Shown one piece after another: positions 6,744 through 60,777 of a stretch of 64,000 nucleotides of DNA. Positions within the stretch are counted from its first letter, which is position 1. Every line of letters begins with the position of its first letter. Where the stretch lies: NCBI GenBank assembly GCA_000092065.1, contig CP000590.1. The stretch is one strand, 5' to 3'. Below the pieces are notes generated by a model. It saw only the letters and a program-made list of their open reading frames with translations. It did not search any database and had not been told where the DNA came from. Source of the DNA: Ostreococcus lucimarinus. Lineage: Eukaryota. The translations under genes and the position numbers were made by a program.

Positions 6744-6777
6744 ATCTCTAGTGTGAACGCTACGTAATACGGGTATG

Positions 6778-8886
6778 CTATTGTTGTATGAGTGGTCGAA
6801 ACCCTCCATTAACTTCTATCAACGAATCCTTTCCTAGCAAATCTCTAATCACTTTTTCTGGATCTCTCGATCCCCCGTGTCGCAATAATTTGTCACGAAG
6901 ACTCTCCGCCGCGCCCGCCGCGAGGCTGTCGCCCTCAAAGTAACGCTTCCAAATGTCATCGGCCAGGACATCGGCGTACAGGTACGAGTAATATGTCGCT
7001 CCGTAGCCGACAAAGTGACCAAATCTAAGCTCCCAATTCGTACCGGACACAGGTTTGAACATACTGTGCTCGTTTTGAATCGTTGCAGCGAGATCAGCGA
7101 TCGATTTTGACGATAGTTCGGATGTTTGGTTGTGAAGCTCGAGATCGGTCAACGCGAAGACAACCTGTTGTTGCGACTCAATCGAACGAAATATATTCCT
7201 CGACTTGCGCAACGCGGAAATCATGGCGTCAGGTATGGGCTCGTGCGTCATGTAGTGTTTTCCAAGAAGCTTCAAAGCACTTGGATCCCACGCAAAGTGC
7301 TCGAATAAATGACTCGGAACCTCAACGATGTCCATTGGCGCTCGAGTTCCAGACAAATGTTGGAATTCTGTATCCGAAAGCACAGAGTGCATGGCGTGAC
7401 CAAACTCGTGTAAAAACGTTTCCACTTCTCCGTGACTTAACAAAGATCGCCCTTTGCCCGATACGGGAGGGAAGTTACACACGAGAGCGACCGATGGGTG
7501 CTGCCGTTCTGTGGGCGACACCATGCGGCTACACCGAATGACAAAGTGTGCGGCGTGATTAAACTTTCCCGGCCTCGGGAGCAAGTCCAAATAAATCGTC
7601 CCTCGCATGTCTCCATCACGAGTCTTCACCACTAGTTTCTTCAGGTCATTCGTCCATCCTTCGCCAGGTGCCAACTCCTGCAGTTCGATGCGTAAACCGA
7701 GAACTCTCGCAAGAAGCTCGCCGATGCCGACGATGACGCCTTCCAAAGGGAAATACTCCGCAATCGCGGCCGAATTGAATTCGCACTCGTGTCCACGCGC
7801 TTGTGCCATCGCGTAAGTTTTGTCCCACACCGATATGTGTTTGCCGTGATTATACTTTTCAATGACGGCGTACTCGTCCTTTGCGCTCTGCCGAAGGACA
7901 TCCGATAGACTCAACAAGAACTCGCGAACGGCGTCGGGTGATCGAGCAAGCAACGGTGCGGTGGCATATTTGGCATATGTTTCGAATCCTAGAGAATGCG
8001 CGACACCAGCACGAGAAGATATGAGGTTGGCCAAAACGTCTTTGTTTGGCTCGGGTCCAGTGTTCGCCGCTATGAAGACGTCTCGGCGCGCGTTTGAATC
8101 CCTCAGGTGTCTCAACATCAACGACGAGTTCGATGAATCTACCAACCCCGTCCATAGCTTACCATCATTACTTCGAAACTGGTCTCGCACTGTCTTCGGG
8201 AGCGAACTCAGCGTGCTCTTGTCGAGCGATACTCTGCTCGCTAACTCTGGGCGCAACAAATTCCGTTGAAACTCCATCCCGAGCTCAAGACTTCGCGACA
8301 AGCTCCCGTCGAAATCCCGTCGCCTCGCCGGGTCGAGATGAATACCTCCGCGTTCAAAATCTTCTTGCAAAGTAAGCGCCACGCGCGCGCCCTCGTCGCT
8401 CAAATTCTTTGCGTCCCTCTCTCGCGCGCTCCGCAACGCCTCGTACAAGTCGCCGTCGGCGTTCAAGCTTGCAACGTAATCTTGTAGTCGCACGTACGCC
8501 TTCTCCGCCGCGATGACGTATTCGCGCGAAGGATGCGTGTGACGACACACCTCCGCGACGTCCACGACTCGACAGACCTCATCAGATATCTCATCCAACG
8601 CCCCGACGCTCGCCGCGCTCGGCGCCGCCGCCTTGAGCGCGCGCGCCATCGCCTCGCACTTCGATATCGTCTCTCGCGCCAAGCGATCGAAATCTTCGGG
8701 CGCGCGCAAACCTTGAAGATCGTATAACCCCTGAGCGCTCGCCGTCGCCGTCGATCGCGCGCGATGCTCCGTCCACGGTCGACGAAACCCGTCGTGCGCG
8801 CCCAACGACCCATCGCCGTGTGACACATACTCGACCGTCCACGCGCGCGCGCGCCGCGTGAGACCGGTCCACGCGCGCCGCACCAT
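6778..8886 (-). CDS. MIP: Mitochondrial intermediate peptidase (M3 family zinc metallopeptidase, MIP/Oct1-like)
   Basis: HEXXH zinc site FLHEFGHAMHSVL followed by QHLSGTRAPMDIVEVPSHLFEHFAWD, which closely matches the MIP consensus (HEMGHAMHS...QHVTGTRC.TDFAEVPS). Arg-rich presequence from the first ATG at 8886; the ORF-track start at 8901 is a GTG. Confidence 0.75.
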   Translation of the reverse strand: MVRRAWTGLTRRARAWTVEYVSHGDGSLGAHDGFRRPWTEHRARSTATASAQGLYDLQGLRAPEDFDRLARETISKCEAMARALKAAAPSAASVGALDEISDEVCRVVDVAEVCRHTHPSREYVIAAEKAYVRLQDYVASLNADGDLYEALRSARERDAKNLSDEGARVALTLQEDFERGGIHLDPARRRDFDGSLSRSLELGMEFQRNLLRPELASRVSLDKSTLSSLPKTVRDQFRSNDGKLWTGLVDSSNSSLMLRHLRDSNARRDVFIAANTGPEPNKDVLANLISSRAGVAHSLGFETYAKYATAPLLARSPDAVREFLLSLSDVLRQSAKDEYAVIEKYNHGKHISVWDKTYAMAQARGHECEFNSAAIAEYFPLEGVIVGIGELLARVLGLRIELQELAPGEGWTNDLKKLVVKTRDGDMRGTIYLDLLPRPGKFNHAAHFVIRCSRMVSPTERQHPSVALVCNFPPVSGKGRSLLSHGEVETFLHEFGHAMHSVLSDTEFQHLSGTRAPMDIVEVPSHLFEHFAWDPSALKLLGKHYMTHEPIPDAMISALRKSRNIFRSIESQQQVVFALTDLELHNQTSELSSKSIADLAATIQNEHSMFKPVSGTNWELRFGHFVGYGATYYSYLYADVLADDIWKRYFEGDSLAAGAAESLRDKLLRHGGSRDPEKVIRDLLGKDSLIEVNGGFRPLIQQ

Positions 8887-8929: not shown

Positions 8930-9010
8930 CGCGTGCCCCCGCGCGCGGCGCTGTGCCGTTTGACGCGCGTCGATCGAAGTGTACATATAAATACATATAA
9001 ATACTGATGA
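8930..9010. promoter_or_regulatory. AT-rich island with tandem TATA-like motifs (CATATAAATACATATAAATAC) in the divergent promoter between MIP (-) and the JmjC gene (+)
   Basis: Only AT-rich patch in an otherwise >65% GC spacer. Lies between two divergently oriented start codons (8886 and 9229). Confidence 0.35.
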
Positions 9011-9228
9011 TAGTACCATCAGAAAAGTCAGGGTTAATGTCATAAACATCCCGACACCCCGAACTCGCGCGAAAATGCACGGTCGCGTCGTCGTTTTCCT
9101 CGATCGAACGACGAGCGTTACTGCGAAACGGCCGACGCAGGACAGCACAGGCTGGCGCGACGGGGCGACGCGAGGCGCCACGGTGGACGACGCGCGCGGC
9201 CGGATCGTTTCATCAGACGTCCGTCGCG

Positions 9229-12828: not shown

Positions 12829-13689
12829 CGCTCGCTTCGCCGCGTCGTTCCCTCGCCGCCGCTTCCCGCGTCGGCGTTCGCCTTCGCGTTCGCGTCCCGC
12901 CGCCTCCTTCCCTCGCCGCGCCCCCTCGCCGCGCCTTCCCGTCGTCCGTCGACGCGCGTTCGCCTCCGCGCTTTCGCACCATCTCGTCGCCGATCCCGGG
13001 CCGTCGTCTTCGCGCGCGCGCTCCCACGCCATGTCGAGATTCGCGTCTCCGACGACCGACGCTCGTCGACGACGCGCGCGCGGATCGCGGCGCGTCGACG
13101 CGCGTCGACGCGGCGCGCGAAGCGCCGAGAACGTCGACGAGCGTTCGCGTCGGAGCGCGTCGGACGCCGCGCTCTGACGCGCGCTGACGCGCGCTGACGC
13201 CGACGAATGACGATTCGTCGACGCCGAGACGCGACCGCGACGACGGACGCGCGCCGAGACGAACGCGCGCGTCGCGGGCGACGACGCGATTCGGGGCGTC
13301 GGCGTGCGTCGGCGTGCGTGGGTTCTCTCATGGCGTTCACGACGCGTTGAATGCGGAAACGTGACGGGTATAATTAGGGTTGCGACGGCATCACCGGACG
13401 GGACGCCAGGCTTTCTTCCCGACGCGACCGGCGCGACCGGCGCTCCGGCGCGTCGGCACTCGTCGACGCGATGGGCGGACGCGTGCGACGATCGAACGAT
13501 CGCGCGCGCGCGAACGACGCGACGCGCGCGGACGAAGAGATGGGCGACGCGGACGCCGCGCGGGCGAACGCGAACGCGAACGCGAACGACGCGACGACGG
13601 CGCCGCGCGGTGAAGGTGCGGGGAAAAATCGCGCGATTCGTTCGATTGATTGTCGCGTCGCGTCGACGCGTCGTGCGTTGGCGAGTTCG

Positions 13690-16144: not shown

Positions 16145-16446
16145 CGCGCGCCGCCGTTCGCGTCCGCGCTCGCGTCGCGCGCGTCGAGCCCTCGACCGCG
16201 CCGCGCGCCGGCGTCACCGTCCTCGCGCGCGCGCGTCCGCGTCGTCGCCGCTCGCGCGCGCGTCGGATTTTGCGGATAACGCGTCGTCGATTCGTCGATT
16301 CGTCGATTCGCTCGACGCGGCACTCGCGCGCGCCGCGTCGCGCGCGACTCGCGTCGATGCGCGGCGCGGCTCGCGCGCGCGCGCGCGCGAGCCCCGCGCG
16401 CGCGTCGCCTCGCGCGCGTCGCGCGAGGGCGTCGACGACGCGCGCG

Positions 16447-27725: not shown

Positions 27726-27829
27726 GAAAAGGCCGCGACGCGCCGGCGACCGCGCCGGGACGCGCGCGCGCGGCGTCGCACGCCGACGCGCGCGGCGCTC
27801 GAGCGCCGTCTTCGCGTCCGTCTCGCGCG

Positions 27830-28498
27830 ATGCGCGTCGCGTCGACGCGCGCGCGCGCGGGCGTCGCGGCGCCGCGAACGCGCGACGCGCGAGACCGCGG
27901 ACGCCGCCGGGACGCGACCGCGCGCGCGCGACGCGGGATGCTGGGCGACGCGATGCGCGAGCGCGACGACGCGAGCGAGGAGAGAACGGGGAAACAACGC
28001 GGCGCGTCGGGGTGCGCGTGCGGGAAAGACGCGAGCGTGGCGTACGAGGCGTGCTGCGGGCGGGCGCACGGGGACGCGAACGCGGCGGCGGCGCTCGCCG
28101 CCGAGGACGTGATGCGCGCGAGATTCACGGCGTACGTCGTCGGCGACGCGCAATATATCGTGAGCTCGACGCACGAAGAGTCCAAAGATCGCGCGCGGGA
28201 GTCCCTGCTGAGGGACGCGGAGAACACGATCAAGCGAATACGATTCCACTCGTTTCGAGCGAAGCGGTCGAGCGAGAAAGACGGCGAGGCGTACGTGACG
28301 TACGAGGCGGATTACACCCAAGGAAAGGGAAGGGGAAAGATGAAAACGTTAGCCGAACGCGCGCGCTTGCGAAGAGACGCGGAGACCGGAGGGTGGAAAT
28401 TTGTGGACGCCGTGGCGTTGGGCGCGAACGCGTCGCTCGACGACGCGGGCGACGCCGCCGCGCCGGGCGCGCCCGATCCCAGCCGCCGACCGATGTGA
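27830..28498 (+). CDS. YchJ/UPF0225-like protein with N-terminal SEC-C metal-binding motif and NTF2-like domain (bacterial-type)
   Basis: GCACGKDASVAYEACCG (SEC-C: CxCG...Y..CCG) followed by AEDVMRARFTAYVVGDAQYIVSSTHEE, typical of YchJ. Start could be the ATG at 27938. Confidence 0.55.
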   Translation: MRVASTRARAGVAAPRTRDARDRGRRRDATARARRGMLGDAMRERDDASEERTGKQRGASGCACGKDASVAYEACCGRAHGDANAAAALAAEDVMRARFTAYVVGDAQYIVSSTHEESKDRARESLLRDAENTIKRIRFHSFRAKRSSEKDGEAYVTYEADYTQGKGRGKMKTLAERARLRRDAETGGWKFVDAVALGANASLDDAGDAAAPGAPDPSRRPM

Positions 28499-30836: not shown

Positions 30837-30978
30837 CGTCCGTCGTCGCGCCGTCGTCGTGTGTCGCGCCGCGCGCGCGGCGGCGATCGATCGCGGCCCG
30901 CGCCGCGTCGCCGTTCGAGCGTTTCTATTTAGACATCCACCTACCCGGAATACGCGCCGAATGGAGATATCAGAGCGA

Positions 30979-31013
30979 TCCTAAACCCTAAACCGATCCT
31001 CAACCCTAAACAC
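30979..31013. repeat. Interstitial plant-type telomere-like repeat (CTAAACCCTAAACC...CAACCCTAAAC) in the divergent ATPS/HSP60 promoter
   Basis: Direct reading. Corresponds to the AAACCCTAA telo-box cis-element class. Confidence 0.65.
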
Positions 31014-33384: not shown

Positions 33385-33455
33385 TCATACTTGACTAACG
33401 CTGCTTTTGTGAATCACAAATCTACAAATTATTTACATGAATAAAGCGGTCCTAT

Positions 33456-35078
33456 CTAAAAACATTTTTCGAGCTCGTCGTCGCCTATTTCGTCAAACGT
33501 TGGGGCGGCAAGCTCTTTGTCGTCTATCTCGTCAAAAGTCGGGGGCTTGTACAGCAACTTCAACAGTTCATGCGACTCATCCAATACATCTTTACTCAAT
33601 TTGTGCCACGCACCTCGGATACCACGGCAGTCGGGATCGTGGCATCTCTGATAGTACGCGTCCTCGCGGAAATCGATGACGAACATCACATTGTTGCTCT
33701 TGTGCGCTCGTTCGATGTTTTCGCAAAACCGATTCCCAAACAGATTGAGGATTAACACACCATACTCTGGAAACGCCTTCCACGAGCGCACGGCCGCACC
33801 GCCGTGACCGCTCCAGCGATCAAAGTCTTTGCAAACGAACGAAGCCGTGCGAGGACAAGGTCCGATTGCGTTGCCGTTGAACTCAGACGCGGTGCGCGCT
33901 AGGTGAGACCCGGTTCGATATCCTTGGAATGCTTGTCCGCGCAATACCGAAGTATGCGTGACGCCTTCGAATCGAATCACTTTGGCTTCCAAAATCAAAC
34001 ACGTCGCTGACACCAGCGATCGTTTGAAAGTTTCAAAACTTACTTCAGATTTACTCTTCCAAAATCGTCCGGTAGTCTTCAGAATCGGTTTATTCGTCTC
34101 TTCGCTGTGCTTGTTCGACAAGTAGAGGCGAAACACTCGATTTCGGGTGTACACACCAAGATCGATGAACGGCTCGGTCTTTTCGACGTCGTCTCTCTCT
34201 TTGCGTAAGAACATCGCGTCGCATCGGTCGTCCTCGCCGCGCCGCGACTCTACGGTGTGCCAAAGTTTTCTGACAAAGTGCGCACAATGCGAATTGTCGG
34301 CAAAGACTTGATCATCAGGAAGTTGTATGATCAAGTGACGACTGAACTTGGTCTCGCTTTCGCTATCGAGCTCGACGATGTGCTCCAGCTCATCAAACTT
34401 GGACGTGTCTATCTCCGGCGTCGCCTTCAGCTCCTCTACGATGAGCTGAACCAACCAATCCATCATTCGCACGCCGTCGACGTCTGGGTTTGAAACCTTG
34501 GAAAACTCAACGTCAAAGTACAAATGACAATGGGTATCTTCTCGCATGAGTTCGTAATAGTGGCGCTCCTTCAGACTTTCGTAATATTTCCAAAACGTGC
34601 GCAAGTCTTTCGGGCCGAGCATTCGAACCCCGACGTATTGTCGAAGCCCGCCTTTCTCTTCTAATTGGCGGCAAAAGTACATGTAGGGCTCTTGCACATC
34701 TTCCGAAAGTCTCCTTTGATCCACAGCTTCGAACAATTCTTGCTGCCTGTAACTTTTGATCCAGAATCGGTCTGGTTGCTTGCTCTCTCTTTCGTCCTCT
34801 TCTCGCACGACTCGCTTGCGCCTTTTCCTCGTGTCTTCCTCCTCTTTCTTTCGTTTCGTGTCTTCTCCGTCGTAGAAACTGCTGGGATCATACGGTCTTA
34901 TCGCGTCGAAATCTATGGATGTACGCGCTTTCGTGTTCTCGTCCTTCTTCGGAGGCGAAAGCCGTGGATCGTATATTTCTCGCATCTGCCGTCGTTCGTA
35001 AACCGTTGCGTCGCGGTCAGTCGCCGTCGCGTGTGAAATCGCACGAGTATGTAGACCAATTATGGCTCGATACGCCAT
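33456..35078 (-). CDS. PRIMPOL: Primase-polymerase PrimPol (archaeo-eukaryotic primase superfamily) with C-terminal UL52-type zinc finger
   Basis: AEP motif I HLYFDVEF (DxE), motif II KFSRHLII (SxH), motif III TRNRVFRLYLSNK, C-terminal CHDPDCRGI zinc finger. Confidence 0.75.
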   Translation of the reverse strand: MAYRAIIGLHTRAISHATATDRDATVYERRQMREIYDPRLSPPKKDENTKARTSIDFDAIRPYDPSSFYDGEDTKRKKEEEDTRKRRKRVVREEDERESKQPDRFWIKSYRQQELFEAVDQRRLSEDVQEPYMYFCRQLEEKGGLRQYVGVRMLGPKDLRTFWKYYESLKERHYYELMREDTHCHLYFDVEFSKVSNPDVDGVRMMDWLVQLIVEELKATPEIDTSKFDELEHIVELDSESETKFSRHLIIQLPDDQVFADNSHCAHFVRKLWHTVESRRGEDDRCDAMFLRKERDDVEKTEPFIDLGVYTRNRVFRLYLSNKHSEETNKPILKTTGRFWKSKSEVSFETFKRSLVSATCLILEAKVIRFEGVTHTSVLRGQAFQGYRTGSHLARTASEFNGNAIGPCPRTASFVCKDFDRWSGHGGAAVRSWKAFPEYGVLILNLFGNRFCENIERAHKSNNVMFVIDFREDAYYQRCHDPDCRGIRGAWHKLSKDVLDESHELLKLLYKPPTFDEIDDKELAAPTFDEIGDDELEKCF

Positions 35079-36045: not shown

Positions 36046-37746
36046 ATGGGTGGCGGCGGCGAAGCGAAAAAGGCGAAAAAGGAAAAGCGCGCGAAGCGCG
36101 ACGGCGACGACGGCGAAAGGAAGAAGAAGGCGAAGAAGAGTAAAAAGACCGACGCGGGAGCGGGCGATGCGGACGATTCGAGCGGGCGCGAAACGCGCGA
36201 GGAGGAGGCGGTGGAGAGAATCGAAGCGCCGGTGGATGGAATACTGAGCGAGACGACGTTCGAGTCGCTCGAGTTGAGCGCGCCGACGATGAAAGGGATC
36301 GAACAGATGGGATTTAAGACGATGACCGAGGTACAAGCGCGGTGTGTGCCGCCGTTGCTGGCCGGGAAGGATGTGTTGGGGGCGGCGCGGACGGGGAGCG
36401 GAAAGACGCTGGCGTTTTTGGTGCCGAGCGTGGAGTTGTTGTACCACGCAAAGTTCATGCCGAGAAATGGGACGGGAGTGATGGTGCTGTCGCCCACGCG
36501 TGAATTGGCGCTGCAGATTTACAACGTCGCGCAACAGCTGATGGAGAAGCACTCGCAGACGCACGGATTAATCATCGGAGGCGCGAATCGACGCGCCGAA
36601 GCCGAACGCTTGATCAAGGGCGTCAACTTGCTCGTCGCCACGCCTGGACGGTTGCTGGATCACATGCAGAACACTCGTGGATTCACGTTTAGCTCGCTCA
36701 AGGTGTTTGTCATGGACGAAGCCGATCGCATGCTCGATATCGGGTTCGAGGAGGAGATGCGAACCATCGTGAAAATGTTGCCAAAGGAGCGGCAGACGAT
36801 GCTGTTTAGCGCGACGCAAACCACAAAGGTTGAAGATTTGGCGCGCTTGTCGTTGAAGAGTCCGATTTACATCGGCGTTGACGACTCGCGCGCGGTGTCC
36901 ACCGCCACGGGCGTCGAGCAAGGGTACTGCGTCGTCCCGAGCGAGCAAAGGTTTTTGCTCTTGTTTACGTTTTTGAAGAAGAACTTGAAGAAGAAAATTA
37001 TGGTTTTCTTTTCGTCGTGTAACTCGGTCAAGTATCACGCCGAATTGTTGAATTATATCGACATTCCCGTGAGCGACATTCACGGCAAGCAAAAGCAACA
37101 GCGAAGAACGACGACGTTCTTTGAGTTTTGCAAAGCCGACCGCGGCGTTTTGTTGTGCACCGACGTCGCGGCGAGAGGCTTGGACATCCCCGCGGTGGAT
37201 TGGATCATTCAGTACGATCCTCCAGACGACCCAAAGGAGTACATTCATCGCGTCGGGCGCACGGCGCGAGGGACGGACGGAAAAGGACGCGCATTGCTCT
37301 TCTTGATTCCAGAAGAGTTGTCGTTTTTAAAGTATCTCAAGTCGGCGAAGGTGCCGCTCAACGAGTACGAGTTCCCGACGAAAAAAATCGCCAACGTGCA
37401 GAGTCAGTTGGAGAAACTGGTGGAGAAAAATTATTACTTGCACACCAGCGCGCGCGACGCCTATCGAGCGTACATTCTGGCCTACAACTCGCACACGCTC
37501 AAGGATGTGTACAACGTGCACGCGCTCGACCTCAACGCCGTGGCGAGCTCGTTCGGTTTCCACAAACCTCCCAAGGTCCAACTCAACCTGGACTCCAAGG
37601 CGAGCAAAGGGCGCACGAAATCACGAGGCGACGGCGGTCCGGGAAGCGATTACCGTCGCCAGAAAGGCACCGGTCACAATTTTAGCGCGGAAAATCCATA
37701 CGGTAAAAAGGATTCGAGCGATTCGCGTCAATTCGTACGCATGTAG
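36046..37746 (+). CDS. HAS1: ATP-dependent DEAD-box RNA helicase HAS1/DDX18 (nucleolar ribosome biogenesis)
   Basis: Near-identity to HAS1 core: [53 protein letters not shown]...PTRELALQ...[16 protein letters not shown]...[18 protein letters not shown]...HRVGRTARG. First ATG at 36046 ([12 protein letters not shown]...). Confidence 0.88.
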
Positions 37747-38241
37747 TAGCCCGCGTATCACTAGCGATCAAAGACACCAATCACTCAGTATTCATCACTC
37801 TCGTTTTACAAACTCACTTATCCATCGGTTCCAGCACGACGGGCGTCGCGCTCCCCTCTCGCGGCCACGCCTTCATGCGCGCCTTCGTCGCGTCTTCCCA
37901 CTCCTTCGTCATCGTCGACGGCAACGGATCGCCTGCTCGCGCGCGCGCGCGCCCATCGTCAGTCCCCACCCCCTCCCGCGCGCTCGCGTCGATCGACCCT
38001 CCGCGCGCGCTCGCGCGCGTCCGTTCGCCCGTTCGTAGGGTCGCGCCTCGACCCCCCTCGATCGCGCGCGCGCGCCCGTTCGCGTCGCCCTCGCCGCGTC
38101 GCGCACCTCCGAACACTTTCGCGACGTTCACGGCGTAATACGTCACCCCCGCCGCGCCGCACAGCGCCGCCGTGGCGCTCGCCACCTGCGCGATCGACGC
38201 GCTCGTCATGGCGCGGCGTCGCGGTGTGGCGTCGCGCGCGG

Positions 38242-38440
38242 CGTCGTGATCGACTCGTCACGTATTTAAGGACTCTTCTTGGGTCGCGAACGGTCGATCG
38301 TCGTCGCGGCGTCGTGCTCGAGTCGTCACGTATTTAAGGACTCTTCTTGGGTCGCGAACGGTCGATCGTCGTCGCGGCGTCGTGATCGAGTCGTCACGTA
38401 TTTAAGGACTCTTCTTGGGTCGCGAACGGTCGAATTCAAA
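38242..38440. repeat. Near-perfect tandem repeat, ~68-bp unit x 2.9, each unit containing CACGTATTTAAGG (TATA-like), 260 bp upstream of DNA2
   Basis: Unit GTCGTG(A/C)TCGA(C/G)TCGTCACGTATTTAAGGACTCTTCTTGGGTCGCGAACGGTCGATCGTCGTCGCGGC, repeated starting at 38242, 38310 and 38379. Only 2 substitutions between copies; copy 3 diverges at its 3' end. Confidence 0.85.
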
Positions 38441-38700
38441 GCCCGCGACGACAGACGCGGCGTCGCGCGGCGTCGCGGCGCATCGCGACGCGCGCGAGCG
38501 GACGCGCGCGAACGCGCGAGCGCGCGACGCGCGACGCGCGCGTCGTCGTCCCGACGCGTCGAGAGCGCGGCGCGAGCGACGACGCGCGACGACGACGCGA
38601 CGCGAGGGGCGACGACGGGACGACGAGACGAGACGAGACCACGACGACGCCGACGACGCCGACGACGACGCGCGAGCGCTCGACGAGGGAAGGGAGCGAA

Positions 38701-41700
38701 ATGAGCGGGAAGAAACGCGCGCGGGGCGGGCGGCGGGTGACGGTGGACGCGGAGGTGGAGACGTCGCAGCGGGAGCGGGTGACGTACGGGGCGCCGAGCG
38801 GGACGACGACGACGACGACGACGGCGACGGCGACGACGACGACGGAGGCGAATGGGAGCGCGCGGCACGGTGATAGCGCGGCGATGGAACGATTGTTCGC
38901 GTTAGGCGCGGGAACGGTCGCGGGGGGGGGCGAAAACGATGCTGATGATGGATTAGGGGTGTGGTTGAGCGAGAGCGAATTCGGCGGCGGCGGCGGCGGC
39001 GCGAGGGGGAAGTCGAACGCGGTGGGCGCGAACGGCGAGCGTGGGAGGCTTTCCGTGCCCGTGGCGCCGGCGTGGGAAGAATCATCGGCGGAGAAGTCAC
39101 CGGGGGGGCGGAGACGACGGGCGAGCCGCGATGGCGAGGAGCGAAGACGATCGGAGGATTTGTTTGAGGAATTGTTGACAAACGTCGAGCGCGGCGCGCC
39201 GGCGCGAGACTCCGCGCCGGCGACGATGGAAGTCGCGACGACGACGACGGCGTCCGCGGTGAATACACGCAAAGAAGGTGACCACACGCTTGCGCTGGCG
39301 TCGATGGATCCCGATTGGAACGACGAGGATGAGGATAGTCAGGCGCTCATCGACGCCGTGACGCTCGCGGAGAAGCGCGCCAAGATGGCAAAGTCGGCTT
39401 CTGCGACGACGACGCAAGCGAGTAACGCCGTGCCTTCGCTGAGCGATATAACCCTAGACGATGGCGATGACGACGACGACTTATTCGCCGCCGCGGTGGA
39501 TATGGCTGAAAAAGCGCGCGACAGTCGCGTTGAGTCCGGAACGCCGTCCACGGCGACTTCCCCTAGGAAATCGCCTAGGAAATCCGCCGCGGTCGCGGCT
39601 TGCGCGCGCACGCAATCGGCGACTGCGCGAGTTAAAATTGAAGATGGCTTTATGGAAGATTGCAAGGCGGAGTTGCAGAAAGCGTTGGAATTCGCGAGAG
39701 AAGAAGCGGAGGCAGAGACTGAAATTCTAGGCACCTGGTTCGTCGAAAGCGTCGCGTCGCCGCGGATTGGCTGCGTCGAATCCCTCGTCCTGACGAAGGC
39801 TAGCGGTGCAAAGAAGACTGTCGTGCTGAAGGGTTATTGGCGAGAAACCCTGGTTTCAGTGGGAGATTCTCTGATCTTGTACTGTTTGCCCGGCGTGGCG
39901 CGCAAAGAAGACGTCGCGAAGGATATTGTCGAAGTCACTGACGATGGAGGGGTGATGATTATTCTTTTCCCGGCGTACTTGATAAGTGCGACGACGATAG
40001 GGAATGGTATGGACTGCCCTCGACAATCAGTGTTGCAGCAACAACTGCAGACGACGTGGGGTGACGCGAACGAGGCGGCGACGATCGGTACTATTATGCA
40101 CGATCTCGTTGAGCACGCGCTCCTCGTCGGATCGAGCCGAGCACTCGTGCCGATGGCTTCCAAGGTGAAGAGCGTGATCGAAAGCAACGTGGACAATATA
40201 TTCGCCATCGATTCAACCGAAAAGAAGCTGCAGCAAAGAATAGATGCGACCATTCCAGGTGTGGAATCATGGGCTAACAAGCTCACGGCGGCGTCTCGTG
40301 TGCCAAAGCTTGGTCGCGCGAAGCCCGGCGGCAACGCCCAGGTGCGAATGAACAGAAAAGCTGCGCACGATAAGCTTCGAAGAAAGTGCACTGTGGGCGT
40401 CGAGGCAAGCTTGGATTACAATACGTCTGCAACGTTGCAAGTTGACGACATGATTGACATAGAAGAACTCATTTGGGCTCCAAAACTTGGATTAAAAGGC
40501 ATCTTGGACGGCGTCGCAAACGCCGTCATACGTCAATCGAAGGAAGATTTACCATTGCCGAGCGTCGTTCCGATCGAGTTGAAGACGGGTAAGTGGAAGT
40601 CTGTCGGTCACGACGCACAAGTCTTGTTTTATAATCTTATGATCGGCGAACGCTACGGCAAAGTGTCTCCTTTCGGCGTATTGCACTACACCACGGACGA
40701 TAATGACGACGAAGGCACGAGTAAAATTTTCACGAATAAGCCGGCTAACATCAGCGCTCTGATGCAGCGTCGGAATCACCTTGCGGCAATGTTAAGACCG
40801 ACGCCCGAAGAAGCGATGCAACACAACGCTCCAGTCCCGCACGGCAAGGCCCGTCTCGGGAACGGTAAGCTGCCGAAGATGCAGCCACAAAGCTGGTGTG
40901 AGCGTTGCTTCTCACAGCACGAGTGTTTCAGCTTGCATCGCGCGCTCGAGGGAGGAGACGGCGAAACAAGCGAGCTCGGCAATTTGTTCATCGGCGCCAC
41001 CTCGCATCTGAACCAGACTCACGAAACAGCAATCCGTCACTGGATTCATCTGATTGATTTGGAATCTTCCGAGTCTTTGCGCAAGCGTGCAACTCCGTGG
41101 CTTCCGGTTGAACTCGTCAATCGTCGCGCGAGCGACACGTACGCGATCGACGACCTCGCTTTTGTTCGTGAAAGCACGCAAGAGAAGTCTGCATTCGTCG
41201 GTGATAATCACTATTACATATTCAAACCCTCAAGTTCTGTCGCAGAAAGCGTTCTGAAGAGAGTTGGGATCGCCGATCGCGTCGTCTTGAGTCGCGACAA
41301 AGGCTTGACGGTGATTTCTCGCGCACAAATCATTCGCATCTCAAATGATTCTGGCGAGGTCGTCATCGAAATGGCTACAGAACGACCATTACGCCGGGAT
41401 ACCGCAAATAATGCGATGGCACCGTTACCGGGATCGTCCGAAGAGAGCGCGCTATGGAGAATCGATAAAGACGGGGCTTCTCTCACCATGGCCGCGAGGA
41501 CTCGTGGAAACGTTCTCGCGTTGTTTACCCAAACAGAACGCGCCGCTATCATTCGTCGACGCATCATCGATTTGGAGCGACCCAAGTTCGCTCCAATTGG
41601 TGACCATAAGAGGAAAATCGAAGTCGCACTCAAAGATCTCGGCTTCCCTTTGAACGACGAGCAGCTTTTGGCAGTCGAAAAGATCGTTACGGCTGAAGAT

Positions 41701-42948
41701 TACGTCCTCGTGCAGGGCTTTCCGGGTGCCGGCAAAACAGCCATGCTCGTCGCCGCCGTGAAAGCTCTTCGAGCGCAAGGAAAATCGGTGTTGATCACGT
41801 CCCACACGCACAGCGCCATCGATAACGTCTTCTCTAGGCTTCCAGGAGTTGGAGTTCACGAGTTTATGCGCATCGGCGACGAAGTGAAAGTCGTCGACGC
41901 CGTGCAAGAATACAGGCTTGGATCAAAGCGATGGCCGTGCTCGAATTCGGATGACTTGCGTAAGGTATCAGAGCGCGCTATGGTCGTCGGTGCAACGTGC
42001 CACGCCATGGGTCACGCGTATTTCCAGCGTAAAATGTTTGACGTTGTTCTCATCGATGAGTCGGGGCAGATTACGCTTCCGAGCATTCTCCCTCCGCTCT
42101 TTGCGGCAAAGACGTTCGTGCTCGTCGGCGATCACCATCAGCTCCCGCCGCTCGTGAAGTCAAAACAGGCAATTGCCGGTGGACTTGGTCGATCTCTTCT
42201 TGCCATGCTGTGTGACGCACATCCAGACATGGTGACGAAATTGTCTTCGCAGTACCGCATGGCAGAGCCGCTGACTCGATTACCAAACATTTTGACGTAC
42301 GACGGAAAGTTGCGCTGTGGTACGGAGTCGGTCGCGAAACAGTTACTTTCGCTCGCGCCTCTCAAAGATGCTTTCTCCTGCGCTCCGCAGTGGTTAGCGC
42401 ACGTCATGAATCCCGCGAATCACACCGTTTTCTTGGATACGAGCGCGCTCGGCGCCGCGGCGCGCGAAACGCCTAAGCCGTATATTAATGAGGCAGAGAT
42501 GGACTTGGTGCTGACGACAGTCAGTGCGCTCACAACTCACGGCGCCACGAGTGTGTGCGCATTATCACCATTTAACGCCCAGGTCGACGCCATCAAAGCT
42601 CGCTTGAACGGATTCAAAGCGCTCAGCGGCGACGACGCGCCTCGAGCGCTCACAATTGACAAAGCGCAAGGCCAGGATATGGACGCGGTGTGCATCTCCT
42701 TCGTCTGTTCGAACGATGAAGCCAAGGTGAACGTTTTGCTGAATGACACCAGTCGCTTTAACGTTGCGATCACGCGTGCAAAGAAAAAGCTGATCCTCAT
42801 CGGTAACGCCGAAACGTTGCGATCCTCTCCGGTGCTCGCGCGAGCGCTCGAATTTTATCGCGCCGAGGGGTGGATCGTGCCGCTCACCATCGAAGCGCTG
42901 GATTTCACGAACTTCGTCCTCGGGACGTTCGAACCGAGCGTTCTCTAG
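38701..42948 (+). CDS. DNA2: DNA replication helicase/nuclease DNA2 (PD-(D/E)XK nuclease with Fe-S cysteines + SF1B helicase)
   Basis: Nuclease region with conserved Cys (CPRQSVLQQ...C..C) and the IELKTGKW motif. Helicase: GFPGAGKT (Walker A), VLIDESGQI, VLVGDHHQLPPLV, TIDKAQGQDMDAVCISFV, NVAITRAKKKLILIGN. Disordered N-terminus. Confidence 0.85.
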   Translation: MSGKKRARGGRRVTVDAEVETSQRERVTYGAPSGTTTTTTTATATTTTEANGSARHGDSAAMERLFALGAGTVAGGGENDADDGLGVWLSESEFGGGGGGARGKSNAVGANGERGRLSVPVAPAWEESSAEKSPGGRRRRASRDGEERRRSEDLFEELLTNVERGAPARDSAPATMEVATTTTASAVNTRKEGDHTLALASMDPDWNDEDEDSQALIDAVTLAEKRAKMAKSASATTTQASNAVPSLSDITLDDGDDDDDLFAAAVDMAEKARDSRVESGTPSTATSPRKSPRKSAAVAACARTQSATARVKIEDGFMEDCKAELQKALEFAREEAEAETEILGTWFVESVASPRIGCVESLVLTKASGAKKTVVLKGYWRETLVSVGDSLILYCLPGVARKEDVAKDIVEVTDDGGVMIILFPAYLISATTIGNGMDCPRQSVLQQQLQTTWGDANEAATIGTIMHDLVEHALLVGSSRALVPMASKVKSVIESNVDNIFAIDSTEKKLQQRIDATIPGVESWANKLTAASRVPKLGRAKPGGNAQVRMNRKAAHDKLRRKCTVGVEASLDYNTSATLQVDDMIDIEELIWAPKLGLKGILDGVANAVIRQSKEDLPLPSVVPIELKTGKWKSVGHDAQVLFYNLMIGERYGKVSPFGVLHYTTDDNDDEGTSKIFTNKPANISALMQRRNHLAAMLRPTPEEAMQHNAPVPHGKARLGNGKLPKMQPQSWCERCFSQHECFSLHRALEGGDGETSELGNLFIGATSHLNQTHETAIRHWIHLIDLESSESLRKRATPWLPVELVNRRASDTYAIDDLAFVRESTQEKSAFVGDNHYYIFKPSSSVAESVLKRVGIADRVVLSRDKGLTVISRAQIIRISNDSGEVVIEMATERPLRRDTANNAMAPLPGSSEESALWRIDKDGASLTMAARTRGNVLALFTQTERAAIIRRRIIDLERPKFAPIGDHKRKIEVALKDLGFPLNDEQLLAVEKIVTAEDYVLVQGFPGAGKTAMLVAAVKALRAQGKSVLITSHTHSAIDNVFSRLPGVGVHEFMRIGDEVKVVDAVQEYRLGSKRWPCSNSDDLRKVSERAMVVGATCHAMGHAYFQRKMFDVVLIDESGQITLPSILPPLFAAKTFVLVGDHHQLPPLVKSKQAIAGGLGRSLLAMLCDAHPDMVTKLSSQYRMAEPLTRLPNILTYDGKLRCGTESVAKQLLSLAPLKDAFSCAPQWLAHVMNPANHTVFLDTSALGAAARETPKPYINEAEMDLVLTTVSALTTHGATSVCALSPFNAQVDAIKARLNGFKALSGDDAPRALTIDKAQGQDMDAVCISFVCSNDEAKVNVLLNDTSRFNVAITRAKKKLILIGNAETLRSSPVLARALEFYRAEGWIVPLTIEALDFTNFVLGTFEPSVL

Positions 42949-51129: not shown

Positions 51130-51142
51130 ATAACCCTAAATC
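51130..51142. promoter_or_regulatory. Telo-box-like AACCCTAAA motif about 60 bp upstream of the TRM10 start codon
   Basis: gataaccctaaatc read directly. Confidence 0.35.
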
Positions 51143-51321
51143 AGAAGGAGATTATTTGTTACACAAAATTGTTCACGACTACGACGCGAAGACATATAAA
51201 TAGAGCGCTCAAGACTTGGTAAACGACCGTCCGCGCCCCGAAACGCGGCGTCACACGCGCGCGCGGGACCACTCGCGAGCGAACGAACGAACGAGCGACA
51301 CGTTTCAAATTTCTTTTCTTC

Positions 51322-51477
51322 ATGGCGTGCGATAAGTGCGGCGACGCGTGCGCGTGCGGCCCGGGTGCGTGCGCGTGCGCGAGCGCGCTGACGTGTCATG
51401 CGTGCGGGCACAAGAGTTGCGGCTGCGCGCGATGTAGATGCGCGTGCGATTCGTGCCAGTGCCAGACGAAGAAGTGA
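51322..51477 (+). CDS. Candidate metallothionein-like small Cys-rich protein (51 aa, 15 Cys), not in the >=60-aa ORF track
   Basis: MACDKCGDACACGPGACACASALTCHACGHKSCGCARCRCACDSCQCQTKK. Repeated CxC/CxxC pairs. ATG in TTCATGG context. TATAAATA at 51197..51206 (~115 bp upstream). Sits alone in a 370-bp gap between the TRM10 promoter and TRAP1. Caveat: GCGTGC-rich DNA can yield Cys-Ala runs by chance. Confidence 0.35.
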   Translation: MACDKCGDACACGPGACACASALTCHACGHKSCGCARCRCACDSCQCQTKK

Positions 51478-51686
51478 TGATTGCGTCACTTTTTTCGTCG
51501 GCGCATTCCGCCGCGCGCGCTCGGGGCGCGAGTTCCGAGGGCGACCGCGGAGGATGCGACCGAGGGCGACCGCGGAGGATGCGACCGAGGGGAAGGATGA
51601 AAGTTACCGTGGCAACACTCAATAGCAGTGCTTTTCAATCAATCAATACACGATTTTCCACTGAAACAACTTTTTAATGAATAATA

Positions 51687-51706
51687 CTAAACCCTAAACC
51701 CTAAAC
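51687..51706. repeat. Interstitial plant-type telomere repeat (CTAAACCCTAAACCCTAAAC, ~3 units) in the TRAP1 promoter
   Basis: Direct reading, 140 bp upstream of the TRAP1 ATG. Confidence 0.7.
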
Positions 51707-56454: not shown

Positions 56455-59163
56455 ATGTCGAGCCTCGTCCGCGCGCTGTCGCGACGCGTCAGTCGCGCGG
56501 CGCGCGAGGCCGCGGACGCCCCCGAAGACGCGCCCGCGCCCTCGGCGCCGCCGTTGAGCGCCGAAAGCGCCGACTCGGCGAACGACCACCTGACACCGTC
56601 GCCCGCGCAAGAAATGACGAAAACCGCCGCCGCCGACGGCGACGCGGCGTCGAGCGACGCGGAAGAGACCGCGCTCGACGCCGGCGAGGTTATTCTCGAG
56701 CGAGACGACGCCAGGGTGCCGGTGCTGCTGAAGCAAACGTCGTCGACGCTGCTGCCTCGCGACGAGGCGAAGAGGCTCGAACGAATGTTGTCGACGGATG
56801 TGCGGGACATGATGGCGAAGGAGGTGTGGGCGTGTCGACCGTCGACGTTCATCAGACTCACGATGCGGGCGCCGGTGCTGATGATGATTTTGTCGATTAT
56901 TTTTTGGGTGGCGGCGGGCGCGTACGCGCTGGTGCGGAAACCGCCAAAGGTGGAGACGGATGTCGCGGGATTTAGCATTCGCGATCATCCCACGGCGAGG
57001 CTTAAGGATGCGATTTGGAGCGCGGAGAGTGAGTCGGAGTTTAATTGGGACGCCATGTTGACCGCGGGTGGGTCGGCGAGCGTGGGGACGATTCCGTACG
57101 TGACGAGTTGGCTCGATTCGGGTGGATATTTGACGTCGCCTTCGGCGGTGCGAAAGATGCGTCGATTGCAATCGTACGTCGCGACAGAAAGACCGAGCTC
57201 ATATAGTTCGTTTCAGCTCGTTTACACGTCCACGCGTGGGGAGAATGTGTTACGCGAGGAGGTGATGAAATTCGCGTTGGATTTGGAGGGCAAAATTACG
57301 CGACTCCCGGGCTACGCAGAGACGATGTGCTTGCAGATCGCAGACACGGAGTATTTAGGCTCGAACGGATGCACGCCGCCAAATTCCATAGCACCTTTAT
57401 TCTTCGCGACGACGGTGAGCGGGACTTACTACAGAAATACCGTCGATGTCACCATGAGTTTGGCGTCGAGGGGGTTGTATGTCTACGTCGACAAGGATTT
57501 CGACGCCGCGAACGGCACCGCGTCGTCGTTTAGAACGAGCTTTCCAATCGGTCAGCCTAGTAAGGCAGTGTGGAAAAAGTGGATGAAGAGCACTCTAGTT
57601 CCGTTTTTACGAGCAAACACGAGAGATGAGGCAAAAGGCATTCGATGTCTCTATGGGGGCAAAGAAATCACCCAGTATGAAGCCGATTTGGCAATCTTGC
57701 ACGACGCGAAACTCATCATTGCCGGCTTGTCGCTCGTGGTCGTGTACACATACTTTCACACCGGCTCTGTTTTCATCACGTTTGCGGGAATATTTGAAAT
57801 TATTCTATCTTTTCCCGTCGCGTACGCGTTTTACGCATACGTTTTGAAGTTGGAGTCGATTAGCGTGATGCAGTTTTTGGCGATTTTCATCATACTCGGC
57901 ATCGGCGTCGACGACGTCTTTGTATTTTACGATTCTTTCGAGGATGCTTCGCGCGCCGTGGGGATACGCGGTGACACCCTCGAAGCACGATTAAATTATG
58001 CTTATGATCACGCTGGAAGAGCGATGCTGGTGACTTCGATGACTTCAGGCGCGGCATTCGCCGCAAACCTCGCCTCCGCCATTCCGGCGGTGCAAATATT
58101 TGGTGTCTTTATCGCTGTGATGGTTTTGGTAAATTACTTCCTCGTCATCACCTGGTTTCCCGCATGTTTGTGCGCGTACGAGCGATACTGGCGAGTTTCC
58201 AAAGATTTCAACTATTGTGGCCTCGGAGGCTTGCGTACGAAGCACCTCCCTTCCGCTGAAATGGATGCTCGCGCGGCGCAACGCGCCGAATCTTGTTTGA
58301 GCTGCATCAAGCGTGTCGCTTGCTTTGGTCAAAAGTTGAACCAATATCAAAACGTCATGGCAGCGCAAAAGAAGAAACGTTCGATCTTTACATGGAGAAC
58401 TTACGGTGCATACTTGGATGTTTTCAAGTACATCTTGCTCGTCATTTGCCTCGGATCGATGGCAGTGACTGGATATTTCTCAACCAAGACGGAGGCGAGC
58501 GGGCAACCGCCAGAGCTGTTTCCGGCAGACTCGAATCAGCAAATGTTCATCAAGTGGACGGAATCGCAATTCGAGAGCGATAAATTCGCCTGCACGAGCT
58601 TTGCGCACTGTCAGCAACAGGCTGGGACTGTGCTACAGCAAAACGGTGTGACGCTGTCGCCGCCGCCACCGTCGCCGTCTCCTCCTCCTCCTCCCAGGTC
58701 GCAAGTCGGAACCATCACTTCTCCAGAGATTGATCAATTAGCAGACGTAGTATTCAATACTTTCGACAGCGACGCGAATGGTTGGCTGGACACGACGGAG
58801 TATGACTCTTTCGCAGCGGCGGTAACGACGACGACGAGCCTACCACCCGCGAACACCGTGATGAGCGCGTACGGCACGCCGCAAGGTGTCACAAAACCGG
58901 GATTTGTTCTCGCCCTGGATACAGCTGCTGGCGTAAACGACGCACCGGTACTAGATGCGTATTCGCTCCTCGTCTTAGGCACAGCAAGATCGAGCCCTCC
59001 TCCACCAAGTCCACCGCCGTCACCCCCGCCTTCGCCGCCGTCACCGCCGCCACCCCCGCCTTCGCCGCCGTCACCGCCGCCGCCGCCGTCACCGCCGCCA
59101 CCCCCGCCTTCGCCGCCGTCACCGCCGCCGCCGCCGTCGCCGCCACCGAGTTCCAATCCATCA

Positions 59164-59195
<32 letters not shown>

Positions 59196-60777
59196 GTCAC
59201 CGCCGCCGCCGCCGTCACCGCCGCCGTCACCGCCGCCGTCGCCGCCGCCGCCGCCGTCACCGCCACCGTCGCCACCGCCGCCGGAGGCGCTCCAAGCTGC
59301 CGAGCGCGTCGCGGGGACGAATTACGAAAAGGCGCAACTCGTGTGGGGCATCGAAGATATTCAAGACGATTCTGCGCCATATGCTCCGCGAGAGGTTGAC
59401 GCTAATCCGGTGGTCAACCCCGCGTTTAACATCGGCGACCCCACGACTCAAGTCCGCATGTTGAAGTTCTGCGAAGCGTTGCAAAACAGAACGGACCTCG
59501 CGAGTTCGTTTAAGGAGTGCCCGATGCAGATTCTCAAAAACGTTGGAACGACGCTTTCATACCCTTGGCCGATGAGCTCGGCGCAAATCTTAAGTGTCAT
59601 CACGTCCATCGCGACGCAGAATCCCGGGTACAGAAAAATCTACGGCTTACAGACGGTGACGTCGGGCGGCGCCTCCACCCAACGCGTCGCTTGGGTCAAG
59701 GCGAACTTCTTGTCGGGGATTCCATTTCGAATGTCGGCGACGAAGCTTGAACAAGAATATTTCAAGTTTCTCGATTTCATCGCCGAGTTTGAAGCAACAA
59801 CGTTTCAGTACTCCGCGACGAATGCGAACGGGTCGGTGACGCTCCATTCCGCCCCTCCCACGGCGTCGGCGACAGTGAGAGTGACCTCCGAGTGTTGGGT
59901 GCGCATGGCAACGGAGCTGCAAGCCATTCGAGGCACGGTGAGCTCGATCGCAGTGTCCCTCGCGTTTGCCGTTTTCGCCACGCTCATTTTCACCGGCGAC
60001 GTCTTTGTGGCTCTCATGGCGCTGCTGAGCATGCTCGCCATCATCCTCGCCGTCATCGCGATTCTAGTCGCGCTCAAGGTGAAGTTTGGCATCGTCGAAG
60101 CGATTTCGCTCACAATTCTCGTCGGCATCTCTGTCGACTTCAGCTTGCACTTGGCCGAGTCGTTCACGCGCTCACACTTCACGAGTCGCGGCTTGCGCGG
60201 CGTCGACGCGGTCTCGCGCGTCGGTTATCCGATTTTCTCCGCCGCGATGACGACCATGTCCGCCGTCATACCGATGCTTTGGTGTCAAGTCCAAGTTCTC
60301 GTGCGCTTCGGACAAATCATTCCTCTGTGCATCGTGATGTCGTTGGTGTACGGCGTACACTTCTTCCTCCCGATGCTCATGTCGTTCGGGCCCAACGTTC
60401 CCGGCGGCGGCGCCGGAAAATGGTTGTGCCACATGGGAAAGCTTCCCGGCTTGCTCTTCAGCACGCAAACTCGCCGCATGATTTTCCTCGTCGCCTCCGG
60501 CATGATCTTCGGCTTTTTGCTCCCCGCCACGCGCGCGCTCCTGTACGAGGACGGCGGCTCCGCCTTCGCCGTCGTCGCCGGCGGCTTCGCCTTCCTCTCC
60601 GCCGTCGCCGTCTTCGTCGAGCGACGATGTCATCTCCGCGCCGTCGCCGCCGCCGACCCCTCCGCGCGGTCCCACGTCGCTCGCGCCGCTCGACTCGCCG
60701 CCGCTCGACTCGCCGTCCCCGCCCCGCGTCCGCGTCCCGTCGACGCGCGACCTTCGCCTTTGCCCTCGCGCGCGTGA
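56455..60777 (+). CDS. RND-superfamily membrane protein with sterol-sensing domain (Patched/Dispatched/NPC1-like 12-TM topology). Its large second extracytoplasmic loop carries a canonical EF-hand and an extensin-like (S)Pn block.
   Basis: SSD signature GIGVDDVFVFYDSF. Second RND repeat with ISLTILVGISVDFSLHLAESF. Multiple predicted TM helices. EF-hand loop DSDANGWLDTTE (58769..58804). (SPPPP)n at 58990..59283. Confidence 0.7.
58990..59283 (+). repeat. Coding proline-rich repeat ((S)P3-5 extensin-like, ~100 residues) inside the RND/SSD gene
   Basis: SPPPPSPPPSPPPSPPSPPPPPPSPPSPPPPPSPPPPPPSPPSPPPPPSPPPSSNPSSSPPPSPPPPPSPPPPPSPPPSPPPSPPPPPSPPPSPPPP read in frame. Confidence 0.85.

Follow-up and report, generated by a model that had tools for sequence, protein, structure and literature searches.

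A copy-number-variable 68-bp minisatellite in the DUF1138–DNA2 spacer of Ostreococcus, a putative bidirectional promoter

Variable tandem repeats are known from a range of promoters, with the MAOA-uVNTR and the insulin VNTR as examples. Promoter repeats that are unstable reportedly confer transcriptional evolvability (Vinces et al. 2009). A different kind of short repeated sequence, the introner elements of Micromonas, was reportedly described by Worden et al. 2009 and in later work. Human promoter microsatellites likewise constitute variable promoter repeats (PMC3566118). In Aspergillus fumigatus, the TR34 and TR46 tandem repeats in the cyp51A promoter duplicate factor-binding sites, and both the bound factors (SrbA, AtrR and the CCAAT-binding complex) and an effect on expression and phenotype have been demonstrated (PMC9239056, PMC4954732). 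Our literature search for promoter repeats and TATA or start-site data in Mamiellophyceae, and for DUF1138, returned nothing directly relevant. Here we describe a 68-bp tandem array that differs in copy number among wild haplotypes of a marine picoalga and that would lie within a promoter shared by two divergent genes.

The array and its gene context

The window (i.e. the whole 64-kb stretch of Ostreococcus lucimarinus DNA that was analysed) carries in succession HAS1 on the plus strand, a DUF1138 gene on the minus strand, a head-to-head spacer of 491 bp, and DNA2 on the plus strand. The features of this locus are:

36046..37746, plus strand: CDS of the HAS1/DDX18 DEAD-box helicase, 566 aa
37814..37932, minus strand: exon 2 of the DUF1138/COX4-like gene including the stop codon, from Pfam, the exons of relatives and the spliced translation
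37933..38106, minus strand: GT...AG intron of 174 nt in the DUF1138 gene, about 77% G+C
38107..38209, minus strand: first exon of the DUF1138/COX4-like gene, with its ATG at 38209-38207, from the spliced translation
38441..38700, plus strand: CG/GA-rich stretch from the array to the DNA2 ATG, 72-82% G+C
38701..42948, plus strand: CDS of the DNA2 nuclease-helicase, 1415 aa in a single ORF, with Pfam domains Dna2, AAA_11 and AAA_12

An initial sequence-only reading had located the repeats between HAS1 (ending at 37746) and DNA2, which was right as to position but overlooked the minus-strand DUF1138 gene. When left unspliced, the minus-strand ORF at 37814-38209 matched DUF1138 through its C-terminal part only. 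Removal of the 174-nt intron yielded a 73-aa protein and thereby restored a contiguous Pfam DUF1138 match, running end-to-end with E=1.1e-11 and 45.1 bits (cut-off 34.8). This protein also resembles COX4, albeit more weakly and below threshold. Both exons were found in relatives by tblastn, and the neighbouring gene in Micromonas commoda is annotated with DUF1138. Metagenome gene callers read straight through this in-frame intron and consequently predict a spurious product of 131 aa. On the other side of HAS1, a minus-strand gene of 540 aa (approximately 33455-35077) that encodes a Pfam Herpes_UL52 domain of the primase type is divergent from HAS1 across a spacer of about 970 bp. A CP12-domain gene near the locus is consistent with a green alga.

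Tandem Repeats Finder (TRF) revealed a single tandem array at 38237-38433 with a period of 68, 2.9 copies, 97% matches, no indels and a score of 380, and a repeat search of the window placed the copies in the register 38237-38304 / 38305-38372 / 38373-38440. The units are:

38237..38304: repeat unit 1, 68 bp, variant GTGATCGACTC, from TRF and the repeat search
38305..38372: repeat unit 2, 68 bp, variant GTGCTCGAGTC, from TRF and the repeat search; missing in two-copy haplotypes
38373..38433: repeat unit 3, partial (61/68 nt), variant GTGATCGAGTC; the repeat is left at 38434

After its first 61 nt (at 38433), unit 3 passes into the unique sequence ATTCAAAGCC in place of TCGTCGT. Two sites vary between the units, namely unit position 13 (38249/38317/38385), which reads A/C/A, and unit position 18 (38254/38322/38390), which reads C/G/G. 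Both searches thus agree with the initial description of three near-identical 68-bp head-to-tail copies differing at two positions. The coordinates given at that time (38242-38440) denote the same array, but their register was off by 5 nt and their 7 final bases are not repeat sequence. The array shows the head-to-tail arrangement of a 10-100 bp unit (68 bp x 2.9) that typifies minisatellites and VNTRs. Its 43-nt core occurs three times, as opposed to 0 times in 100 dinucleotide shuffles. As the length of the unit is not divisible by 3 and neither of its strands contains an ATG, it is not a coding repeat.

Among the tandem repeats of the 64-kb window, the array scored highest and was the only long-period, high-identity one without CG low-complexity. 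Other repeats in the window include a degenerate CCGCCG-rich tract at 59011-59283 (30 bp x 9, score 266, also with periods of 18 and 48), which is probably a coding low-complexity tract. Interstitial telomere-like AAACCCTAA repeats of the telobox type are found in intergenic DNA at 30976-31011, 51138-51148 and 51686-51706, one of them upstream of an HSP90-family gene.

The array is separated from the DUF1138 ATG by 27 nt and from the DNA2 ATG by 267 nt. Given that the divergent DUF1138 start codon is 27 nt away, the array belongs to a spacer that is shared with DNA2, rather than being merely upstream of DNA2. Any promoter reading must consequently include the DUF1138 gene, and distance favours this gene for the proximal unit. 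A composition profile showed the array to be an island of low G+C (54-65%) between spacer flanks of 72-82% G+C. The stretch at 38441-38700 is the probable 5′ leader of DNA2, judging from its composition. No plus-strand ATG is present in this stretch, and depletion of upstream ATGs in the spacer was not significant (P=0.29). A strand-skew switch was also considered as a general signature of 5′ leaders and was abandoned, as the upstream skews of 14 neighbouring genes were inconsistent and some of the coordinates were off.

Non-coding DNA of the window, whether spacer, leader or the DUF1138 intron (37850-38240, 38441-38700 and most other spacers), has 72-82% G+C and consists of degenerate CG/GAC low-complexity repeats, with further examples at 13057-13600, 16145-16446 and 27761-27977. 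Coding sequence has approximately 50-60% G+C, so that the usual pattern is reversed.

Copy number and uniqueness among environmental contigs

The locus was compared with 13 environmental contigs of the same species as the window, in which the unit was confined to this locus. The DNA2 protein was found exactly on the 46-kb ENA metagenome contig L001, and is 52% identical to that of Ostreococcus tauri. For HAS1, only metagenome-derived proteins reach 100% identity, while a sister taxon has 94-95% and Micromonas commoda 87%. These comparisons assign the window to a Mamiellophyceae picoalga. Searching 241 million metagenome records with a 25-mer of the unit (allowing one degenerate position) retrieved six contigs, all of which represented this locus at about 99% identity. 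Allowing up to 3 mismatches, no further copy of the unit was present in the 64-kb window, and its exact pattern had 0 matches among viral contigs.

Six contigs that span the array (L001, L003, L004, L005, L011 and L013) hold two units each, although these are short-read assemblies and some may represent collapsed three-copy alleles. A single-copy allele was not seen among the spanning contigs. Two other contigs end within the array and thus provide minimum figures, being at least 2.8 units for L002 (two full units and 56 nt of a third) and at least 2.5 units for L006 (two full units and 32 nt). In total, L002, L006, L007, L012, L014 and L015 end or start inside the array. Copy number therefore differs between haplotypes (2 in the spanning short-read contigs vs 2.9 in the window).

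The two variable sites were distributed differently over the units of the various haplotypes. The window reads A-C / C-G / A-G, while L011 reads A-C / A-G, L003 reads C-G / C-G, L006 reads C-G / A-G / C-G..., and L004, L005 and L013 each read A-G / A-G. Across the window, L001, L003, L004, L006 and L011, the units in which the A/C and C/G variants fall are not the same, and in some haplotypes the variants have been homogenised (all-C in L002 and L003, all-A in L004, L005 and L013). The last unit of L001 additionally bears two private substitutions, i.e. CACGT>CGCGT, by which the ACGT core is lost, and GGACTC>GGAGTC. Because these substitutions affect the ACGT core and GACTC, strong constraint on every copy is unlikely.

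Such a pattern of copy number and variants is typical of minisatellites that are unstable through unequal exchange or conversion. It bears out the earlier suggestion of a recently expanded minisatellite, in that copy number varies among wild haplotypes and variants are shuffled or homogenised between units. Copy-number variation between strains, which had been proposed as a check at that point, was indeed encountered in the environmental contigs (2 vs at least 2.5-2.8 units).

Candidate motifs and the spacer in related species

The unit had previously been described as carrying a TATA-like element together with CACGT, and both the AT-rich TATA-like patch and CACGT were recovered. The following motifs were considered:

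38251..38261: motif CGACTCGTCAC of unit 1, after which comes the ACGT core
38319-38329 and 38387-38397: CGAGTCGTCAC, the form of CGACTCGTCAC in units 2 and 3
38263..38270: proximal copy of the TATA-like TATTTAAG (minus strand CTTAAATA), upstream of the DUF1138 ATG by 54-61 nt
38331-38338 and 38399-38406: further copies of TATA-like TATTTAAG
38434..38440, plus strand: ATTCAAA, directly 3′ of the array

All three occurrences of TATTTAAG in the window are inside the array, compared to an expectation of 0.31, and both TATTTAAG and its complement CTTAAATA fit TATAWAWR at 6/8 positions. Since the canonical TATA box of the window is TATAAATA (three occurrences vs 0.07 expected), we refer to TATTTAAG as merely TATA-like. 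A transcriptional start about 30 nt downstream of the proximal TATA-like box would leave the DUF1138 gene with a leader of about 25 nt, and the distal TATA-like box is located approximately 35 nt upstream of ATTCAAA. Both box geometries would be compatible with a core promoter.

Canonical TATA boxes CATATAAATA are located at 8980-9004 and 51193-51202 of the window. The one at 8982-9004 is itself a tandem repeat (10 bp x 2.3), and the one at 51193-51202 precedes a Cys-rich, metallothionein-like ORF of 51 aa (51322-51477), at a distance of 127 nt from its ATG. Downstream of this ORF, a tandem repeat with a period of 25 bp and 2.3 perfect copies (CCGAGGGCGACCGCGGAGGATGCGA) extends over 51535-51591.

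Further candidate motifs of the unit are the ACGT core, GA[C/G]TC, and an 11-mer common to the array of the sister species (see below). Of the 9-mer TGACGAGTC, the window has a single occurrence, at 38252-38260 in unit 1, with units 2 and 3 holding a form with one mismatch. GASTC, or the AP-1-like TGASTCA, was dropped as evidence by itself of a conserved site, with about 0.8-1 chance matches expected per 400 bp.

Analysis of k-mer sharing revealed TTCAAA (38435-38440) as the only non-CG hexamer common to the spacers of at least 5/6 lineages on the same strand, the k-mers shared across the 6 being dominated by CGCG low-complexity words. By eye, TTCAAA was spotted in L009, L018, L019, L024, L026 and L029. 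ATTCAAA may be an initiator or other conserved promoter element for DNA2. Its generalized form ATTCAAR was discarded as a genome-wide initiator (18 matches vs 11.7 expected, not significant).

The synteny of HAS1, DUF1138 and DNA2 is kept in L009, L017, L022 (M. commoda RCC299), L024, L026 and L029, and is broken in the low-G+C relative L028. The 68-bp unit as a whole does not appear to be conserved, since Smith-Waterman alignments of the last unit and its flank to the spacers of 7 relatives did not beat dinucleotide shuffles (P 0.08-0.81, none significant). In the spacers of Micromonas, TATTT(T)CTTGAGTCA and (A/G)TTCAAAACG(G/C)GCACCC were seen by eye to be conserved. The TATTTAAG-GACTC and GAACGGTCGAATTCAAAGCCCGC sequences of the window seem, again by eye, to resemble these blocks, which we mention as a lead in view of alignments that were no better than shuffles.

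In the closest sister (L017, with a HAS1 that is 95% identical), the orthologous spacer could not be aligned with that of the window. This DUF1138-DNA2 spacer nevertheless contains an array of its own at 6873-7001 (49 bp x 2.6, 97% identical), which is unrelated to the 68-bp unit, and a second contig of the same taxon (L008) begins right after this 49-bp array. Across the window and about 108 kb of related loci, the 68-bp and 49-bp arrays were the only long-period, high-identity ones. The sole overlap between their units is the exact 11-mer CGACTCGTCAC (P about 0.018 upon shuffling of the 49-bp unit). The distance between the related 9-mer TGACGAGTC and the DUF1138 ATG is 42-61 nt in L017, L009 and the window, where the 9-mer is inverted.

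A number of other features were observed in these spacers. In L017, the 49-bp unit contains the palindrome CGAGTC-AC-GACTCG, the 16-mer TGACGAGTCGTGACTC is present near the DUF1138 ATG as one inverted copy (at about 6685-6700), and 6700-6870 comprises approximately 170 bp of unique sequence that is not CG-rich (ggcccaatacgggttggctgttttcagcgtcaatttgc...) and has no counterpart in the window. Another relative, with a HAS1 that is 88% identical, is represented by three contigs of separate samples, each of which stops at a (GATT)n microsatellite on the DUF1138 side of the spacer (L018 at 6080-6100, L019 at 6068-6090, and the end of L020). The DUF1138-DNA2 spacer seems repeat-prone in several lineages. 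Finally, the conserved blocks TATTTTCTTGAGTCA and AAATTCAAAACGGGCACCC are opposite in orientation and unchanged in order between L022 (M. commoda RCC299, 9070-9130) and its close relative L026 (5470-5555), which suggests two small local inversions.

Origin of the array and comparison with known systems

With slightly better than even confidence, we regard the array as a young, locus-specific and copy-number-variable minisatellite that derives from the core of a bidirectional promoter shared by the DUF1138 gene and DNA2. We infer this promoter module from position and composition, and likewise infer its activity, which unit goes with which gene and a possible influence on expression, whereas the structure of the array, its gene context, its confinement to one locus and its polymorphism are matters of observation. 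The array would have originated when a 68-bp segment of this promoter was duplicated in tandem, whether by slippage during replication or by unequal exchange. Each unit repeats the only AT-rich patch of the spacer, the TATA-like TATTTAAG / CTTAAATA, preceded by CGA[C/G]TCGTCACGT, and two- and three-unit alleles therefore possess two and three copies of this putative promoter module, respectively. The unit adjoining the DUF1138 gene, with its TATA-like box at about 55-60 nt from the ATG, would serve that gene, while the unit abutting ATTCAAA would serve DNA2. Extra internal units would add binding sites as well as 68 bp of spacing, and might so tune but not abolish expression, for which reason copy number would be free to vary in this working model. 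By analogy with known promoter repeats, a regulatory effect of copy number is plausible. A triplicated core promoter providing DNA2 with several start sites, as initially proposed, is a possibility that would likewise have to take in the DUF1138 gene.

Nearly as likely, and a serious possibility although short of an even chance, is a selectively neutral minisatellite with the same slippage origin, the extra units of which have no measurable effect on transcription and the motifs of which are incidental. Copy number indeed ranges freely from 2 to at least 3 in wild haplotypes, the L001 substitutions strike the ACGT and GACTC motifs, and the unit aligns to the spacers of relatives at the level of shuffles. 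In addition, each flanking gene keeps a proximal unit in every allele, meaning that internal gain or loss may change little. These points have to be set against the location of the array, which forms the only AT-rich core of a compact head-to-head spacer where neutral sequence is scarce, against the lack of a one-copy allele among the spanning contigs, and against the independent array sharing the 11-mer in the orthologous spacer of the sister, with none elsewhere in about 170 kb.

Other explanations fared less well. The shortness of the unit, the near-identity of its copies and the introner elements carried by Micromonas relatives could bring to mind a remnant of a small mobile or introner-like element that inserted and was then locally amplified, as had been suggested initially. 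This idea was given up as very improbable, given that the unit was confined to a single locus in the window (up to 3 mismatches) and in metagenomes, matched no viral contig and has no splice signals at its ends, and that the array lacks surrounding terminal inverted repeats and is intergenic, outside the only nearby intron (37933-38106). A length of 68 nt and a TATA-like box in each unit would also suit a tandem cluster of small-RNA genes (snoRNA, tRNA-like or Pol III), one per unit. However, the array yielded no Rfam match at E up to 10 and no tRNA with ARAGORN, the unit (folded as DNA) folded no better than shuffles on either strand (z=+0.9), and it is devoid of a T-run terminator, so that we hold such a cluster to be equally improbable. 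Short-read contigs often break at the array, where assemblers struggle, and the third copy in the window might accordingly be spurious or have collapsed elsewhere. Yet the independent contigs L002 and L006 also display two full internal-type units and part of a third, the two variant sites tell the units apart, and two-copy contigs have distinctive SNPs of their own (L001). Furthermore, a 197-bp array with a period of 68 should by reasoning be resolvable at k=141, which altogether makes an assembly artefact highly unlikely.

The polymorphism has as its neighbours one gene of core replication and another that is respiratory-chain-like. If copy number tunes expression, it would represent a natural and easily genotyped cis-regulatory polymorphism in an abundant marine picoalga, and the parallel array of the sister would offer a small test case for recurrent evolution of promoter repeats. 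If it is not regulatory, the array would still be useful as a hypervariable marker by which strains can be typed in metagenomes, and contig breaks at this locus would have a known cause. A more far-reaching and rather doubtful proposition is that two sister species independently amplified this head-to-head promoter around CGACTCGTCAC / TGACGAGTCG, owing to either selection or a slippage hotspot. If true, this might in turn indicate recurrent selection for the site of one factor, tuning DNA2 or the COX4-like gene, and thus an adaptive promoter VNTR in wild phytoplankton; alternatively, the bound motif itself might create a hotspot for replication slippage.

Among known systems, the introner elements of Micromonas have in common with the array a short near-identical sequence in a Mamiellophyceae genome. 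Introner elements are dispersed, intronic and number hundreds to thousands, whereas the 68-bp unit is intergenic, in tandem and restricted to a single locus. Its head-to-tail unit of 10-100 bp, copy-number polymorphism and allele-specific interspersion of variants are those of classical minisatellites (VNTRs), but there are only 2-3 copies, and these are found not in subtelomeric or intronic DNA but in a gene-dense algal genome, with a start codon on either side. With the promoter repeats of yeast and human, it shares a polymorphic tract in what would be the nucleosome-free or promoter region of a compact intergenic spacer, and copy number as a fast-mutating variable. However, the yeast cases are mostly short AT-rich microsatellites acting via nucleosome exclusion, while the algal array is a minisatellite of complex 68-bp sequence in 2-3 copies. 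Like TR34 and TR46, it is a locus-unique duplication of tens of bp with natural differences in copy number, although its promoter and factor sites are putative ones. Its unit is longer than theirs (68 bp) and contains a TATA-like box, and its putative promoter is bidirectional. Going by these features, the 68-bp array most likely belongs with the promoter VNTRs and would otherwise be an ordinary promoter minisatellite, the independent array of the sister species in the same spacer being its one feature beyond the ordinary.
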